Shown here in pieces: positions 24,437 to 62,169 of a stretch of DNA of 64,000 nucleotides (position 1 is the first letter of the stretch; every line of letters begins with the position of its first letter). The notes below the pieces were generated by a model that ran no database searches, was not told the origin of the DNA, and saw nothing but the letters and a program-made list of their open reading frames with translations. The position numbers and the translations under genes are program-made. The DNA comes from Rickettsiales bacterium (GTDB lineage: Bacteria > Pseudomonadota > Alphaproteobacteria > Rs-D84): assembly GCA_031262525.1 (NCBI GenBank), contig JAISHM010000009.1:6583-70582 (forward strand). Direction: 5' to 3'.

Positions 24437-24512
24437 GGGTGCGTAGCTCAGCTGGTAGAGCAAGTGACTCTTAATCACTGGGTCTGGGGTTCGAGTCCCC
24501 ACGCGCCCACCA
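24437..24512 (+). tRNA. tRNA-Lys (anticodon CUU) with encoded CCA
   Basis: A manual fold gives an acceptor GGGTGCG/CGCGCCC, a D stem GCTC/GAGC, an anticodon stem AGTGA/TCACT with loop CTCTTAA, and a T loop TTCGAGT. Confidence 0.85.
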
Positions 24513-24694
24513 CTTAAAAAGATTGAATTTATGCCGTTTTAACGGATTTTTTTATTTTTTATAAAAAATACACTGGATTCTTTCGGGATTATTTTCTATG
24601 ATGGTAATGGAAGGAAAAGATGCCAAAATTCAATGATTTTGATATGGAAGCTTAGAAAGATACACTTGGCGATGTCTGGACGGATTCGCTGTGG

Positions 24695-25342
24695 ATGATT
24701 GACCGACGAGACAATAGCGGCAAGCACAGCGGTTTTTATCACGGCAACTTTGTTCCGCAAATCCCACACCAATTTATAAGGCGTTTTACCAAGGCGGGCG
24801 ATACCGTGCTTGACCCGTTTATGGGTTCTGGCACAACGGCGTATGAGTGCGAAACTCTTGCGCGAAACTTTGTCGGAATTGATAACACTTCAACACAATT
24901 TAATCAACGGATTCGTTCTGATATCAAAGATTTTTATAAAAATAAAAAATGCGTGATGCTTGGGGTAAATGGTTTTTCCGAAAATACCAAAATTGAAATT
25001 GACCACAAAGACGGACGCAAAAATGACGACCGCGTATCAGATTTAGCGGGGCAAAAGTTAGAGGATTTTCAACCTCTCTGCAAAGCCGCCAATGACGCAA
25101 AACGCCATTTCTGCAAAAAGTGCAAGGAAACAAATTGTCGTTGGAATGCAAAAAACATTTTGGGCAATCCATATCCTTTTTATGCGGGCGACGAACATTA
25201 TGACGAAAAATTGGGCTGTGTTGGGTGCTATCAATACGACCCTGTGGAATACAGAAAGCAATCCGTGAAACGCATTGCGACAGAGGCATCAAAGAACACA
25301 TCCGATTTTATTATGAAAAAACTTTATGGCGACGACGAATGA
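24695..25342 (+). CDS. Truncated N4/N6 DNA methyltransferase C-terminus (motifs X and I) joined to an HNH-like nuclease domain; possible pseudogene or fusion
   Basis: The N-terminal 55 aa, YHGNFVPQIPHQFIRRFTKAGDTVLDPFMGSGTT...FVGID, match the C-terminal AdoMet motif (HPTQKP...VLDPFxGSGTT) of PF01555-type methylases. The DPPY catalytic part is missing. An in-frame TAG lies at 24653 just upstream. The C-terminal part has an HNH-like EIDHKDG...N...LCKAANDAKRH motif and a Cys cluster. Confidence 0.5.
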   Translation: MIDRRDNSGKHSGFYHGNFVPQIPHQFIRRFTKAGDTVLDPFMGSGTTAYECETLARNFVGIDNTSTQFNQRIRSDIKDFYKNKKCVMLGVNGFSENTKIEIDHKDGRKNDDRVSDLAGQKLEDFQPLCKAANDAKRHFCKKCKETNCRWNAKNILGNPYPFYAGDEHYDEKLGCVGCYQYDPVEYRKQSVKRIATEASKNTSDFIMKKLYGDDE

Positions 25343-26370
25343 ATTACATCGGGTCTAAACTATCTTTGTTGGAATTTTTAGACGCGGGCATAAAATCCGT
25401 TGTTGGCGATGATGCAAAAAATTGCCACACTTTTTGCGACTTGTTTGCTGGCACGGGTGCGGTTGGGACATTTTTCAAGAAAAAGAAAAAATTCAAGGTT
25501 ATTGCGAACGATTTGCAATACTATGGCTATGTCTTGAATCGCCATTATATTGGCAATCATCGTGAGTTAAAGTTTGCTGGACTTAGTGGACACACAGCGG
25601 AACAGGTTTGTGAATATCTGAATAATTTACCAGCACAGCACGGATTTATTTATAACAATTATGCGTCTGGTGGCGGCAGTGAGCGTCTTTATTTCAGCGA
25701 TGAAAACGCCGGTCGTTGCGATGCAATTCGTGCGCAAATTGAAAATTGGAAAGCGGACGGCAAAATCAATGAAGACGAGTATTATTTCTTGCTGACGACT
25801 TTACTTGAAAACATAGACAAGGTTGCAAATACTGCGTCCGTTTATGGTGCGTTCCTTAAAAAATTAAAATCGTCTGCATTGCGTCCGCTGGAAATGCGCC
25901 CAGCACCGCTGTTTATAAATGATGCGGAACACAATGTTTATAATGCCGATGCAAATCAATTGGTGCGTGAAATTGAAACGGATATTTTATACCTGGACCC
26001 GCCGTATAACGAACGCCAATATGCCAGCAATTATCATATGTTGGAAACCATCGCAAAATATGATGCGCCAGAAATTAAAGGCAAAACAGGCCTGCGGAAT
26101 TATGCGGCGCAAAAATCTGATTATTGTTCGCGCGCCAGTGTAAAGCGGGCTTTTGCAGATTTAATTAAAAACGCAAAGGCAAAATATATTTTCTTGTCTT
26201 ATAATAACGAGGGGTTAATGACTCTGGACGATGTGCGTGAGATTATGAGCACCCGCGGAGAATATGGTGTCTTTACACAAGATTACAGACGGTTCAAGGC
26301 AGATTCCGCCCGCAATAATTCCGCCGATAAAACCACCGAATACTTGCATTGGCTTCGGGTTGAAAATTAA
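25339..26370 (+). CDS. Dam-family (D12 class, alpha) N6-adenine DNA methyltransferase
   Basis: It has MNYIGSK, motif I FCDLFAGTGAVG, and the catalytic LDPPYN. Its ATG overlaps the upstream stop in an ATGA arrangement. Confidence 0.8.
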   Translation: MNYIGSKLSLLEFLDAGIKSVVGDDAKNCHTFCDLFAGTGAVGTFFKKKKKFKVIANDLQYYGYVLNRHYIGNHRELKFAGLSGHTAEQVCEYLNNLPAQHGFIYNNYASGGGSERLYFSDENAGRCDAIRAQIENWKADGKINEDEYYFLLTTLLENIDKVANTASVYGAFLKKLKSSALRPLEMRPAPLFINDAEHNVYNADANQLVREIETDILYLDPPYNERQYASNYHMLETIAKYDAPEIKGKTGLRNYAAQKSDYCSRASVKRAFADLIKNAKAKYIFLSYNNEGLMTLDDVREIMSTRGEYGVFTQDYRRFKADSARNNSADKTTEYLHWLRVEN

Positions 26371-26607
26371 AATCATATTCATCAATTTCTAATCATTTTA
26401 TTAAAATTATTGTTAAGAGCGGGTTAATATTTTATAAATTGCGATTTACCATTTGCAGCCCACAGAAACAAAATATTCTGATATAATAATATGATAGGGT
26501 TTGGGACATATAGCGGACATAATGGGGACATATTTGAATAAAAAGTCAGCTAGTCAGTATAAAATCCGCAGATTTCTGCGCCTTTAACTATGCACGGCCT
26601 TTTAATT

Positions 26608-26650
26608 CTTAATCACTGGGTCTGGGGTTCGAGTCCCCACGCGCCCACCA
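26608..26650 (+). repeat. Direct repeat of the 3' 43 nt of tRNA-Lys (attR-like islet boundary)
   Basis: An exact copy of tRNA-Lys positions 34-76 including CCA. No 5' half of a tRNA is present here. Confidence 0.8.
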
Positions 26651-26673
26651 ATTTCACAAAAACTAAAATAATC

Positions 26674-41163: not shown

Positions 41164-41189
41164 ACTTGTCCTTTATAAAGGACAAGTTT
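41162..41189. repeat. 28 bp perfect palindrome AAACTTGTCCTTTATAAAGGACAAGTTT, copy 1, acting as a bidirectional terminator
   Basis: A perfect inverted repeat followed by TTTATTT, between the convergent lnt and CYTH genes. Near-identical copies are at 41822 and 62142. Confidence 0.7.
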
Positions 41190-41221: not shown

Positions 41222-41752
41222 CTAATGATTATTCGCTATGATTAAATCTGGATACCCGCATCTGGATACAATATCTTCATCGCGCAGCGATAACATATTC
41301 TGATATTTTTGTAATATAGGCAACGCGATACTTTCATCCGCACCTTCTACTTCTATCTCAATAAAAGTCCCCAGTCCCACAACATTATCCAAAACAATTT
41401 CGCATTCATTATTTTTGAATTTCATTCTTGTTTTATCAACAACTGCTTTTATCTGGTGATTTAATCCAATCATCATATATTTCAATTTTTCGTAATCATC
41501 ACCAGACACAGACATCTCGGTCTCTTTGGTTGATAATTCAGATATTATTTCATGAAAATCAAACGAATATTTATTTTTTATTTCATCATGGCGAAGCCGT
41601 AAATAAATTCTTTTTCCGTTTATTTTCTCATTATTCACAAAATAAGTATCTATTTGATGGGAATATCCCTTTTCTATAAAACCATTACAAACCAGTATAT
41701 TTTTTACTTTATCAAAATCAGCCAATGTTCTGAATTTTCTTTCAATTTCCAT
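41222..41752 (-). CDS. CYTH-domain protein (class IV adenylate cyclase / triphosphatase-like)
   Basis: The N-terminus MEIERKF matches the CYTH signature EIERKF. The size fits at 176 aa. Confidence 0.6.
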   Translation of the reverse strand: MEIERKFRTLADFDKVKNILVCNGFIEKGYSHQIDTYFVNNEKINGKRIYLRLRHDEIKNKYSFDFHEIISELSTKETEMSVSGDDYEKLKYMMIGLNHQIKAVVDKTRMKFKNNECEIVLDNVVGLGTFIEIEVEGADESIALPILQKYQNMLSLRDEDIVSRCGYPDLIIANNH

Positions 41753-41821: not shown

Positions 41822-41847
41822 CACTTGTCCTTTATAAAGGACAAGGT
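41822..41847. repeat. Palindromic repeat copy 2 (core CTTGTCCTTTATAAAGGACAAG)
   Basis: A 22 bp perfect palindrome core identical to the other copies, upstream of the CYTH gene and downstream of ftsK. Confidence 0.6.
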
Positions 41848-41946
41848 TTTAATTCTAAATTATAAATTATAAATTGACCACTACCCCGCGGCGTTGCCGC
41901 ACCCCTTCGCCAGCGAAGGGGAATACCACATTCCCCAAACCTGAAT

Positions 41947-44169: not shown

Positions 44170-44217
44170 ACCCGCATTTTATCATAAATTTAGTATCAGC
44201 GCCAGTATCGGCTGGTA

Positions 44218-44250
44218 ATAAAAAAAAGCGGCGTTCGCCGCGATTTTTTA
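44218..44250. terminator. Terminator-like hairpin flanked by A and T runs, upstream of ftsK at the left edge of the second R-M island
   Basis: An A8 run, then GCGGCGTTCGCCGC, then a T6 run. Confidence 0.5.
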
Positions 44251-44498
44251 TTACGCGACAAACTGGTCTGGGGTGGTCTGGCATAGTCCGCCCACGCCCC
44301 GCATTGTCTATATTCCACTTTTATTGTCTTTGTATCATAATGTCTGTAATTGTCCGGCATTGTCTGCCAAGAAAAGACATATTACAGACATAGAATTTAG
44401 ACACAGAACGGACATATACTGCGTAAGTTTATGTCTTTCAATATAAATCTGGATATAAAACTCTGGACTTTATTTGTGAATTTTCATACAATGCAGTT

Positions 44499-45392
44499 AT
44501 GATTGAAAAGAATAAAATACATTTGCAAGATTGTATTATTGGCATAAAGGAATTGCCAAACGATTCTATGGATATTATTATCGCTGACCCGCCTTATAAT
44601 ATCGGAAAAGATTTTGGAAATAATTCTGATAAACGCAGTGATAGGGATTATATTGAGTGGGTAAAACTATGGTTGCTTGAATGTCAGCGTGTGTTAAAAC
44701 CAACAGGAACAATGTTTATTTACGGATTTGATGAAATCTTAGCCCACATTTCCGTTTTATTACCGATTGAACGGCAAAGGTGGCTTATCTGGTATTACAC
44801 AAATAAAAATGTTCCGTCATTAAATTTTTGGCAAAGAAGCCACGAATCTATAATTTGTTATTGGCGTGATAAACCATTATTTAATCGTGACGAAGTTCGT
44901 GAACCTTATACTGACGGATTCTTAAATGGCAGCGCTGGACGCACAAGACCCGCAGGGAAAGGCAGATTCGCCGCAAATGGTGGTAAAGAAACAATTTACC
45001 AAGCAAATGAAAACGGCGCTTTACCGCGCGATGTTATTTCCCAATCAACGCTTGCTGGTGGTGCTGCATTAAAAGAAAGAATCATTTATTGTAAAGATTG
45101 TAAATGTATTGTTGAACCAACAAAACGAAAAGAACACGATGGGCATAATTTAATAATCCACCCAACGCAAAAACCTTTGGAACTTACCGACAGACTTATA
45201 AAATCGTGCAAACCAAACAAAAAATATAATGTTTTAATTCCATTTTGTGGCAGCGGTTCAGAATGTATATCTGTATTGCAAAATGGTGGTAATTATATTG
45301 CGTATGAAATCAACCCTGATTATGTCTTGCTTGCTGAAAAAAATATAGAAAGTATGAATAAGAAAAAACAACCAAATTTATTTGGAGAATAA
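44499..45392 (+). CDS. Beta-class N4/N6 DNA methyltransferase (PF01555 type)
   Basis: It has the catalytic IIADPPYN near the N-terminus and the AdoMet motif HPTQKPLELTDRLI...VLIPFCGSGSE at the C-terminus. The local region is AT-rich. Confidence 0.8.
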   Translation: MIEKNKIHLQDCIIGIKELPNDSMDIIIADPPYNIGKDFGNNSDKRSDRDYIEWVKLWLLECQRVLKPTGTMFIYGFDEILAHISVLLPIERQRWLIWYYTNKNVPSLNFWQRSHESIICYWRDKPLFNRDEVREPYTDGFLNGSAGRTRPAGKGRFAANGGKETIYQANENGALPRDVISQSTLAGGAALKERIIYCKDCKCIVEPTKRKEHDGHNLIIHPTQKPLELTDRLIKSCKPNKKYNVLIPFCGSGSECISVLQNGGNYIAYEINPDYVLLAEKNIESMNKKKQPNLFGE

Positions 45393-45394
45393 AA

Positions 45395-46027
45395 ATGCAG
45401 AAATTACTAAATAAGGGAAATTTTAAGAAAATAGATGAAGTGTTTTTAACCAAAAGCATTGACGCTTTTCAGCAAATTACAAACATTCAAACAGAATATG
45501 AAAAACTGGATACAGATACTTTTATGAATGAAGTTAGGGATTCTATTGCTGCAAAGTATCTACACTATACCCACGTAAACATAGAAAAACACGGCTTTGA
45601 TGCTAGAAGAAGTTCCGCAAACAAAGACTTTGAATTTGATTATTTAGAAGTAAAATCCGCAAGTTATGATGCAAAATCTTGGCAAGCAACTTTTAATGAT
45701 ACAAATTTAGAAAAAGCGAATTTATTCAAGGAGAAAAATATTTATTTGGCTTTATCTGTTTGGCGTGCCGCATCTGAATTATTGTTTGTTGTTTATGGTA
45801 AAAACAAGGAAATTGGTAATTTTTTAGAGGCAAAAGTTAAATGGTTTAAAAAAGGAAATACTGTTCGTAGCACGCAATCCATAACCATTTCAGATTTAAT
45901 TTGTAAATATGGATTCAAAGTATATGCTGTGCATAAAACACCAAATGAGATTTTTGATTTGTTTCAGGTAAGAAATGGTTGTAGAAAAATACCAAGAGAT
46001 TCTATATTATCAATTACGGATTTATAG
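45395..46027 (+). CDS. Putative type II restriction endonuclease partner of the methylase
   Basis: A 210 aa ORF starting 3 bp after the methylase stop. It has a PD-(D/E)xK-like element, DFEFDYLEVK. No other homology was recognised. Confidence 0.45.
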   Translation: MQKLLNKGNFKKIDEVFLTKSIDAFQQITNIQTEYEKLDTDTFMNEVRDSIAAKYLHYTHVNIEKHGFDARRSSANKDFEFDYLEVKSASYDAKSWQATFNDTNLEKANLFKEKNIYLALSVWRAASELLFVVYGKNKEIGNFLEAKVKWFKKGNTVRSTQSITISDLICKYGFKVYAVHKTPNEIFDLFQVRNGCRKIPRDSILSITDL

Positions 46028-46149
46028 GTATTTTATGCCTAAAATCCACAAAAAAAGACATATGTTAGACATAGAATGAACGGATAAAAATAAAATCGCC
46101 CGCAAGGTTATATTTCTTGCGTGTTTCATTTTTCGGATCAGGTAATTTT

Positions 46150-46740
46150 TTAATACTGTGTGTATTTATAATTTCTAACAAAAGGCTGAAACTTTATAAA
46201 ACATTCTTGTTTTAATTTTTTAATCGCCTTGCTTGATTTTATAAAATTTTGCGCGAATTCTTTATTGTTTAAATCTCTGTTTGATTTCGTATTACGCCAA
46301 ATACGTCCGTATTTTAATGGAATGTTTCTCATTTCCGTATTATAGAAACCCATTATACTCATAATTTCTGATTGCGCTGATTGCGAGAAACGCTTTATTG
46401 TAAAATAATCTATGTTCGGCTCTTTATAAAATACATCCAACCTACCATCCAGAATAAACAAAATTTTATCATTATACAAAGTATCTTTTTTACGAATCCA
46501 TATACCTTTTTGATTTATATAATTATTCAAACTGGCCAAAGTTGAATAATAATTCAAAGGTTCTATTCTAAACAACCTTTGATTCTCATTAAAAATAAAT
46601 TTCAAATCGCCAGAATTTTGATTATCCGACATTATTTCAGATTTTGTGATAATATGTTGTATTTTACCAAAGGTCATAAAACTGACCGTGTCCACATCAT
46701 AATCAACCACCAAACCAACTAAACTTGTGTTATTTTGCAT
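46150..46740 (-). CDS. Hypothetical protein in the AT-rich accessory region
   Basis: A 196 aa ORF with an ATG start and no signal peptide. It is preceded by a TTGACA-16-TATATT candidate promoter with a G8 tract upstream. Confidence 0.4.
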   Translation of the reverse strand: MQNNTSLVGLVVDYDVDTVSFMTFGKIQHIITKSEIMSDNQNSGDLKFIFNENQRLFRIEPLNYYSTLASLNNYINQKGIWIRKKDTLYNDKILFILDGRLDVFYKEPNIDYFTIKRFSQSAQSEIMSIMGFYNTEMRNIPLKYGRIWRNTKSNRDLNNKEFAQNFIKSSKAIKKLKQECFIKFQPFVRNYKYTQY

Positions 46741-46849
46741 ATACTACTCTTTTAATTATAATCACAATATAATACATAATTATAAATTGTCAATAAAAAT
46801 TTTTTTATTGACATAACGATGGGGGGGGAAATACATACCCTTTAACCAT

Positions 46850-46886
46850 AAAAACAAAAACCCGCAAGTCTATATTTACTGCGGGT
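46850..46886 (-). terminator. Rho-independent terminator downstream of tatA
   Basis: On the minus strand, the hairpin CCCGCAGTAAATATAGACTTGCGGG is followed by TTTTTGTTTTT. Confidence 0.5.
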
Positions 46887-46909
46887 TTTATTTTATGTAC
46901 ATATAATTT

Positions 46910-62141: not shown

Positions 62142-62169
62142 AAACTTGTCCTTTATAAAAGACAAGTTT
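62142..62169. repeat. Palindromic repeat copy 3 (AAACTTGTCCTTTATAAAAGACAAGTTT, 1 mismatch), acting as a bidirectional terminator
   Basis: It lies between a convergent plus-strand ORF and secF. It is followed by the same ATTTCAYTAA flank as copy 1. Confidence 0.65.

Follow-up and report, generated by a model that had tools for sequence, protein, structure and literature searches.

A 64 000-nucleotide (nt) stretch of DNA from a Rickettsiales bacterium (contig JAISHM010000009.1, positions 6,583 to 70,582 of the forward strand), referred to here as the window, carries a two-gene restriction-modification (R-M) cassette between tatA and ftsK, flanked by direct repeats and by an array of a short phased motif. 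The first gene, M (44499..45392, + strand), is predicted to encode a beta-class N6-adenine DNA methyltransferase of 297 amino acids, with matches to PF01555 (N6_N4_Mtase, E = 3e-35) and to the PADLOC model MTase_II (E = 8e-42). As its DPPY (residue 30) lies ahead of FCGSG (residue 249), M has the beta-class order of motif IV (DPPY), target-recognition region and motif I (FxGxG), and DPPY is the adenine-type catalytic motif; the first-pass annotation of this DNA, made from the letters alone, had likewise called the gene a beta-class methylase. A Cys/His insertion occupies residues 198–221, and the nearest solved relatives are M.BceJIV (GTWWAC), M.RsrI and M.MboII.

The second gene, R (45395..46027, + strand; 210 amino acids), starts with an ATG 2 nt after the M stop codon, with a GGAG 9 nt upstream. 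R has no family match in Pfam, NCBIfam, PADLOC or PHROGs and no PDB sequence match below E = 0.8. It has about 160 database homologues of about 210 amino acids, spread over Rickettsiales, Holosporales, candidate-phyla bacteria and Firmicutes; residues D69, E85 and K87 are invariant over 23 homologues, and their D69...E85-V-K87 spacing is that of a PD-(D/E)XK site. Foldseek searches with an AlphaFold model of R (pLDDT 92.9) returned PvuII endonuclease chains as the best solved matches (probability 1.00; TM-score 0.48–0.51 when normalised to the query and 0.61–0.65 when normalised to PvuII), followed by NhoI, DpnI and RecU-type nucleases. The proposal that this ORF (open reading frame) is the partner endonuclease is well supported by the invariant residues together with the predicted PvuII-like fold, and by sequence the protein falls into no described family.

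M.PvuII is an N4-cytosine enzyme, whereas M of the window has the adenine-type DPPY. The two systems are otherwise alike in pairing a small homodimer-type PD-(D/E)XK fold with a beta-class amino-methyltransferase (PDB 1f0o, 1pvi), but R is only about 12–14% identical to the PvuII endonuclease and is longer (210 versus 157 amino acids), and the window has no C gene. R does not fall into the PvuII family by sequence profile and shares with it the predicted fold. The closest solved methyltransferase to M is the GTWWAC adenine methyltransferase M.BceJIV (E = 2e-31; PDB 8URK, bioRxiv 10.1101/2024.01.20.576384), with which M aligns in its catalytic N- and C-terminal parts but not over the target-recognition region; M.BceJIV itself is an orphan methyltransferase.

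A probable M promoter (44464..44492, + strand; TGGACT-17-TACAAT) ends 6 nt before the ATG, suggesting a nearly leaderless transcript. It is kept in two homologous loci, L001 and L048, and the likeness of the region between the window and L001 was reached in 1 of 500 shuffles. The cassette consists of the two genes alone, with no small helix-turn-helix (HTH) ORF or remnant of one as would mark a C-controlled system, and a search of the 5' region for remnants of an HTH_17 regulator or an integrase gene gave nothing significant. Judged from its sequence, the pair was acquired horizontally and forms an intact Type IIP R-M operon complete with promoter and terminator: M and R would be translationally coupled, with a hairpin terminator after R; M would mark a short site and R would cut unmarked copies, a combination that would defend against foreign DNA and make the unit hard to lose.

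The gap between tatA and ftsK is 2,740 nt in the window versus an 85-nt spacer in L006 (CAYJAG010000042.1), the nearest relative compared and yet a distant one, with FtsK 59% identical over its full length and SPOR and TatA clearly orthologous. The gene order in L006 is SPOR-tatA-hairpin terminator-ftsK. In the window, the 85 nt beside ftsK (44170–44254) have the length of the entire L006 spacer and contain the conserved TTTATGATAAAAT and a strong hairpin, T0 (44215..44254), a bidirectional terminator 46–85 nt upstream of the ftsK start that matches the single tatA terminator of L006 in position. Since this segment is the counterpart of the whole L006 spacer, the insert spans 44255..46909 (2,655 nt; 31.7% GC versus 40.7% for the window). 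That the cassette interrupts a conserved housekeeping neighbourhood, as had been proposed, is therefore borne out in this one relative, and its reading as a recently acquired, potentially mobile module agrees with its absence from the orthologous L006 spacer, its low GC content and the occurrence of homologues in many gene neighbourhoods. The accompanying statement that it is AT-richer than both flanking genes (methylase 35.1% GC, endonuclease 29.9%) is correct for ftsK (46.5%) but not clearly so for tatA (33.7%). Beyond the right-hand repeat the insert continues with a hairpin (T2), an ORFan (ORF196; 27.9% GC) with a strong promoter, and a further hairpin (T1).

The direct repeats consist of a left copy at 44368..44396 and a right copy at 46049..46077 (both read on the + strand), the latter beginning 22 nt past the R stop codon and containing two GACAT motifs 11 nt apart. 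The two are identical at 25 of 29 positions (86%) without gaps; past a 9-nt gap the match resumes through GAACGGA (44405–44411 and 46078–46084), giving about 36 aligned nt, and a weaker likeness of the left side to the right flank continues to about 44450, over some 80 nt in all. Local alignment of the two flanks scores 38, compared with 17.0 ± 2.4 (maximum 31) in dinucleotide shuffles, none of 1000 of which reached this score. AGACATAGAAT occurs exactly twice in the 64 kb, once in each repeat, and a search of 788 kb of non-redundant DNA with the right-copy 23-mer (at least 18 of 23 positions) found only itself, the left copy and the homologous cassette of L004. The shuffle score and the uniqueness in 64 kb show the repeat to be real and not a by-product of AT-rich composition; the repeats reported in the first-pass annotation are present where it placed them, far beyond chance, and the search for further copies, by which it proposed to distinguish them from a generic intergenic repeat, came out in their favour within the 64 kb. 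A profile of the copies, built on the idea of repeat plus hairpin as a dispersed element, found no more in the window or in about 50 other loci, and Rfam searches with the repeats and hairpins returned only noise at E ≤ 1, with no known RNA family.

Both repeat copies have counterparts at homologous cassettes elsewhere. The left copy spans −131 to −103 relative to the M ATG, within a 145-nt region upstream of M that is conserved with L048 (global score 23 versus −8.4 ± 5.2, reached by 0/1000 shuffles); its distal portion (−145 to −61), taken separately, was likewise matched by 0/1000, and GCATTGTCT, AAAAGACATAT and ATGTCTTT stand at equal distances from the M ATG in the two loci. A homologue of the right copy follows the endonuclease stop codon of L004 by 25 nt, and the sequences 3' of the two cassettes can be aligned across this block and the hairpin that follows it (3 of 500 shuffles). 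Since both copies travel with the cassette, in L048 and L004 respectively, and the L006 spacer contains no GACATA block, the repeats are arm sequence borne by the cassette and not a target duplication derived from the host. Nor do they mark the edges of the inserted DNA, which reaches 113 nt further to the left and about 830 nt further to the right, so that the earlier description of a module with repeat-defined ends has to be given up.

The left repeat is part of a larger structure that the first-pass annotation, which described the repeats as built from GACATA motifs, did not include. Between 44265 and 44436 there are 12 copies of the motif (A/T)(A/T)TGTC(T/C), in forward orientation at 44265, 44275, 44305, 44325, 44341, 44351 and 44361, then 44432, and in reverse (GACAT) at 44375, 44386, 44399 and 44410. 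Their spacings are 10–11 nt or multiples of this, running 10, 30, 20, 16, 10 and 10 nt, then 11, 13 and 11 nt. Nine strict heptamers are found in the array where 0.31 are expected, and the left flank holds the only dense TGTCT/AGACA cluster of the window (8 per 150 nt versus 0.225 expected; the next-best position has 3). At its centre lies the palindrome TGTCT-N9-AGACA (44361..44379), whose half-sites GCATTGTCT and AAAAGACATAT are identical in L048 while the 9-nt spacer differs; the hairpin around it (44340–44391) has a predicted energy of −19.9 kcal/mol (z = −5). The duplicated segment starts at the third base of this spacer, and to the left of that point the flanks are unrelated. The paired form of the motif, GACAT-N6-GACAT, occurs four times in the 64 kb versus 0.14 expected (0/100 shuffles reach 4), at 44376, 46057, 26505 and 26516, all in the flanks of two R-M cassettes, which favours a link between the motif and cassette mobility.

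The second of these cassettes (24437–26653) has genes unrelated to the M-R pair, an ORF for an IceA/NlaIII-like nuclease and a D12-class methylase gene, and lies between two copies, 47 nt long and 98% identical, of the tRNA-Lys(CTT) 3' end (24469–24515 and 26607–26653). Three GGACATA units in 11-nt phase (26504..26531, + strand) follow the D12 methylase gene by 134 nt and precede the distal tRNA-Lys copy by 75 nt. With its array 75 nt inside the distal tRNA copy, the cassette is, as far as sequence can tell, laid out like an attachment site of the integrase type that includes accessory sites. The nuclease ORF of this cassette (24695–25342) is a chimera of a C-terminal N6_N4 methylase fragment and an IceA/NlaIII-like domain that lacks about the first 74 profile positions, and it overlaps the D12 methylase gene (25225–26370); the restriction gene of this cassette may be decayed.

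At the left edge of the M-R insert, a GC-rich stretch (44262..44301, + strand; ACTGG-TCTGGGGT...AGTCC.CCCACGC.CC) resembles the 3' end of tRNA-Lys(CTT), scoring 25 versus 12.7 ± 2.5 in shuffles, of which 3 in 2000 score as high. It is suggestive only, as a possible relic of an attachment-site core.

Pairs homologous to M-R (M 78–90% and R 74–85% identical) have at least six different genomic settings in Rickettsiales, Holosporales and further metagenomic contigs, with M preceding R in every locus where both genes are in view. The cassette lies downstream of der and a 198-amino-acid ORF in L001, between ferredoxin and class-II aminoacyl-tRNA synthetase genes with zero intergenic DNA in L002, after rluA in L004, after an oxidoreductase gene in L047, and after infA in L048, a Holosporales metagenome-assembled genome (MAG). 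In L038 it is part of an island that carries an HTH_17 gene and terminates at a tRNA-like 3' end. In L050 the pair (M 84% identical) rides as passenger genes inside an element of the insertion sequence (IS) family IS1595 (L050 17–2676) that has 24-nt terminal inverted repeats (88% complementary) and a transposase gene ending 17 nt before the M start; just outside the element, 8 As on its right and 9 on its left resemble a target-site duplication. Roughly 40 homologues of M exceed 70% identity, with representatives in MAGs of Desulfovibrionaceae, Deferribacteraceae, Endomicrobium and Tokpelaia. The M-R pair is clearly a horizontally moving unit. More distant homologues of M, 60–65% identical (among P0217–P0241), include proteins of about 507 amino acids with an N-terminal fusion to a LexA DNA-binding domain and peptidase S24, some of them from candidate-phyla bacteria, and P0240 (365 amino acids) has an HTH_17/MerR domain joined to the methylase; such architectures point to methylases that regulate themselves or are linked to the SOS response.

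Attachment sites of tyrosine integrases, e.g. lambda attP and those of tRNA-targeting islands, contain arm-type and excisionase sites. The arrays of the window are like these in length (100–200 nt), in their short helically phased repeats and in the use of both orientations, and the other cassette further shares with them a core repeating a tRNA 3' end, its array being set 75 nt inward of that duplication. They are unlike such sites in having no integrase or excisionase gene, and in that the repeats themselves, with no core, form the flanking direct repeat. The pattern of phased arrays is present at the M-R cassette, binding by a recombinase being a prediction from this pattern; no identical core is duplicated at the two ends of the insert, where the weak tRNA-Lys-like stretch is found at the left edge only. 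As the same phased motif accompanies an unrelated R-M cassette in tRNA-Lys, we prefer to read the arrays as accessory (arm-type) binding sites of a site-specific recombination system that acts in trans or has since been lost, and hold this reading with moderate confidence. It is also favoured by the tRNA-Lys-like stretch at the left edge of the insert and by related cassettes in mobile contexts, namely the IS1595-type element of L050, the L038 island, and L004 with its T2-like hairpin close to an HTH_17 gene and a truncated integrase. A protein would then bind the arrays, and would be a recombinase and not a regulator. The operon would have arrived on a unit of about 1.8–1.9 kb with its own non-coding arms, and would have landed just past the stop codon of tatA, ahead of the former tatA terminator and the ftsK promoter. 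Because the duplicated segment begins inside the palindrome spacer, the repeat-M-R-repeat layout would be the fossil of recombination at TGTCT-N9-AGACA.

Several observations weigh against this reading. The cassette lies outside any tRNA gene, and its arms have no significant homology to those of the other window cassette beyond the motif. No gene for an integrase, resolvase or transposase was found within the insert or close to it, and none among about 33 window ORFs covered by a scan that was not exhaustive, the visible part of the genome being 64 kb. In L048 the central palindrome pair alone meets the strict motif, the palindrome and first unit being kept, so that the large array has either expanded in the window lineage or decayed in that of L048. 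The array is lacking at the cassettes of L001, L002, L038, L047 and L050 and is therefore not needed for a cassette to persist or move. The fixed distance between the 5' array and the M start in two genomes would fit a regulatory element equally well. The tRNA-like relic is weak and was noticed post hoc, with 3–4 of 6,400 unrelated windows scoring as high. Finally, GACATA arrays in viral contigs have mixed contexts with no consistent link to integrases. These are triple GACATA arrays in 11-nt phase found in 20 viral contigs (L051–L070), often with inverted ATGTC partners and many of them near contig ends (<1 kb), beside portal, primase (PriCT_2/DUF5906) or YqaJ genes and in some cases in giant-virus bins; the class looks like a heterogeneous one of iterons.

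The arrays might instead be operators, the palindrome and phased half-sites binding a transcription factor that times or limits expression of M and R. Such a factor could be host-encoded or a lost controller, e.g. of the HTH_17/MerR type, and the downstream copy could be a second operator acting through looping, as a roadblock or on antisense transcription. The 100% conservation of the half-sites across a variable spacer, the constant distance to M in the window and L048, and the helical phasing would all suit this explanation, as would the N-terminal HTH_17/MerR or LexA domains of some methylase-family members and the divergent HTH_17 gene directly upstream of M in L038. The HTH_17-M intergenic region of L038, however, is devoid of such motifs; in the window no regulator gene or detectable remnant accompanies the cassette, the palindrome is about 100 nt upstream of the −35 hexamer, and two of the three arrays stand at operon 3' ends (46056–46077 and 26504–26531), an unusual position for operators. 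We regard regulation by operators as the main rival of the arm-type reading, though an unlikely one. A structural accident, in which a tandem duplication or an illegitimate recombination event, either of them stimulated by the hairpin-forming palindrome, copied the start of the 5' arm to the 3' end and left neutral relics, would explain why the duplicated segment starts in the spacer of a palindrome that forms a strong hairpin, and it has parallels in a CYTH-domain gene (26-nt palindromic repeat) and in ORF196 (45-nt terminator repeat), which are likewise bracketed by hairpin repeats. It is difficult to reconcile with the retention of the 3' block in L004, where the proteins are just 78% identical, with the same phased motif at an unrelated cassette, and with an array far denser than a single duplication explains, and we regard it as distinctly unlikely.

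Long target duplication, by which a GACATA block of the host would have been duplicated when the R-M unit inserted, is one of three classes of R-M flanking repeats distinguished by Furuta, Abe and Kobayashi (2010; PMC2853133, which cites earlier work on Helicobacter pylori) and has been described for several R-M systems, the other classes being site-specific recombination and chance insertion between repeats; their criteria are an insert of less than 20 kb with R and M and no other mobile-element gene, and a flanking direct repeat of more than 30 bp. The present insert, 2,655 nt with M, R and one ORFan, is of this kind, with direct repeats around R and M and no mobility gene, and the other window cassette has its 47-nt duplication of a tRNA 3' end. 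The repeat measures 29 nt ungapped, just short of 30 nt, and about 36 aligned nt with its gap; it does not coincide with the borders of the insert, both copies are conserved with the cassette beside different host genes, and the empty site of L006 has no single host copy of the block, a point that is weak on its own as L006 is distant; we consider this explanation very unlikely. It is scarcely credible that the block is a generic dispersed repeat or a chance likeness in AT-rich DNA. The genome does have families of repeated hairpins, e.g. three copies of CTTGTCCTTTATAAAGGACAAG, and what can be surveyed of it is 64 kb, but the shuffle tests of the repeat and of GACAT-N6-GACAT, the confinement of further copies in the 64 kb to the other R-M flank, and the conservation in L004 and L048 all speak against it.

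Compared with the units of PMC2853133 as a whole, the window cassette is alike in being a small low-GC R and M pair with no mobility gene, set in a conserved neighbourhood with direct repeats of tens of nt, and unlike in that its repeat travels with the cassette, consists of a phased short motif shared with an unrelated R-M cassette, and lies off the edges of the insert. Movement of R-M genes linked to IS elements (PMC3031569) and R-M units flanked by inverted repeats (PMC2853133) have also been described. The homologous cassette of L050 is of the IS-borne kind, whereas the window insert has no transposase, matching terminal inverted repeats or short target-site duplication. Relics of IS1595 were sought and none were found in the window. 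The integrase fragment of L004, HTH_17 proteins and the L050 transposase, used as tblastn queries, had no match in the window. A plasmid or phage origin was rejected, as the insert DNA had no match in plasmid DNA and R none among plasmid and phage proteins. A likeness of TGTCY to resolvase half-sites and of the palindrome to Xer/dif sites was set aside, as the arrangement does not fit. The features of integron cassettes are also lacking, in that the hairpins have no RYYYAAC...GTTRRRY ends (by inspection), ORF196 is in the opposite orientation and there is no integrase.

A bolder form of the arm-type reading is that the arrays are sites of an undescribed trans-acting recombination system that would carry self-contained R-M cassettes, each with its promoter but unrelated in their genes, from one chromosomal site to another and among endosymbiont lineages living together. 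Such cassette exchange would be comparable in logic to integrons and Xer-dependent modules, but would use other sites and have its recombinase gene unlinked; we think it improbable. Zheng et al. (2015; PMC4760077) found many R-M insertions linked to rearrangements in termite-gut endosymbionts with reduced genomes that have no conventional transposons, and reported no motif arrays at cassette borders. Homologues of the window methylase include proteins from Endomicrobium and other gut-symbiont lineages, and the ecological origin of the window, judged from the names of homologues only, would resemble that of the termite-gut endosymbionts.

To the right of the cassette, T2 (46088..46132) is a hairpin terminator, in part decayed, that lies where R and ORF196 converge, and is a 76% copy of T1 (46850..46894), a strong bidirectional hairpin directly downstream of tatA; the two bracket ORF196 as a 45-nt direct repeat with 76% identity. 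T2 is also related to a hairpin of L004 (1488–1530), with 37 of 43 aligned columns identical (0/500 shuffles). ORF196 (46150..46740, − strand) has no family match, and its sole database match is itself in a 'Rickettsiales bacterium' MAG; it was considered as a conserved partner of the cassette and set aside, being an ORFan unrelated to the 186-amino-acid convergent ORF of L038. It is preceded by a strong promoter-like site (46766..46793, − strand; TTGACA-16-TATATT, 11/12). ORF196 would have inserted later than the R-M unit, into the cassette terminator hairpin and with a 45-nt duplication. Between its promoter and the tatA terminator, 28 nt upstream of the −35 hexamer, lies a run of eight Gs (46821–46828) that could be slippage-prone.

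On the other side of ftsK, the perfect 22-bp palindrome CTTGTCCTTTATAAAGGACAAG, found three times in the window (41164–41189, 41823–41848 and 62145–62166), forms with two of its copies a 26-nt, 96% identical direct repeat around the low-GC (30.5%) CYTH-domain gene (41222–41752). In L006, ftsK overlaps ybeY-lnt directly and on the same strand, so that the CYTH gene is absent there and ybeY-lnt of the window is inverted relative to ftsK. The CYTH gene, M-R and ORF196 are thus three adjacent low-GC inserts around ftsK, each within direct repeats; those of the CYTH gene and ORF196 contain hairpins, and that of M-R starts inside a hairpin-forming palindrome. L006 itself is labelled as an uncultured Muribaculaceae MAG despite SPOR-tatA-ftsK-ybeY/lnt genes at least 59% identical to those of the window, and the contig is probably mis-binned.

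In L004, the segment 1380–1540 has sodB on one side and, on the other, an excisionase-like HTH_17 gene together with an integrase truncated to its arm-binding domain; it contains the palindrome GACATATATGTC as well as a T2-like hairpin. The block part of L004:1440–1493 is not significantly similar to the window, while the hairpin there is. Exact-protein look-ups for strains that lack the cassette yielded nothing but short-read contigs from the organism itself, which match the window at 100% identity. These contigs (L035, L036 and L005, from run SRR14710920) break at 44295, the start of the motif array, at 44837, at 46080, the end of the right repeat, and at 46188. The breaks could be due to low coverage of AT-rich DNA or to strain heterogeneity, and their positions differ from those expected of a deletion variant produced by recombination between the repeats.

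Many short palindromes are strongly under-represented in the window, with observed/expected counts of 7/217 for GATC, 32/153 for TCGA, 8/93 for TTTAAA, 87/206 for CATG, 41/121 for ACGT, 24/91 for GTAC, 13/66 for AATATT, 3/40 for ATTAAT, 24/139 for ACNGT, 2/~42 for GTYRAC, 0/7.9 for GTTAAC, 0/7.8 for GTATAC and 18/148 for TTTNAAA; GGCC is also among those avoided. Such avoidance points to long exposure to numerous restriction systems. The depletion of GTTAAC, GTATAC and GTYRAC, which recalls the GTWWAC site of M.BceJIV, is a weak lead, but avoidance is too widespread for any one sequence to be assigned to the M-R pair as its recognition site.

Acquired Type II R-M cassettes are commonplace, and if the arrays of this one are ordinary operators or neutral relics, the window would add one more. 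The non-coding architecture is statistically solid, and its function is what we infer from the sequence. The cassette also adds an uncharacterised endonuclease family with a predicted PvuII-like fold, about 160 homologues and no family annotation. It has long been asked how 'naked' R-M pairs can move when they encode neither a transposase nor an integrase, and the phased motif WWTGTCY, borne by this cassette and also marking a second R-M cassette in a tRNA gene, provides candidate cis-acting sites for such mobility.

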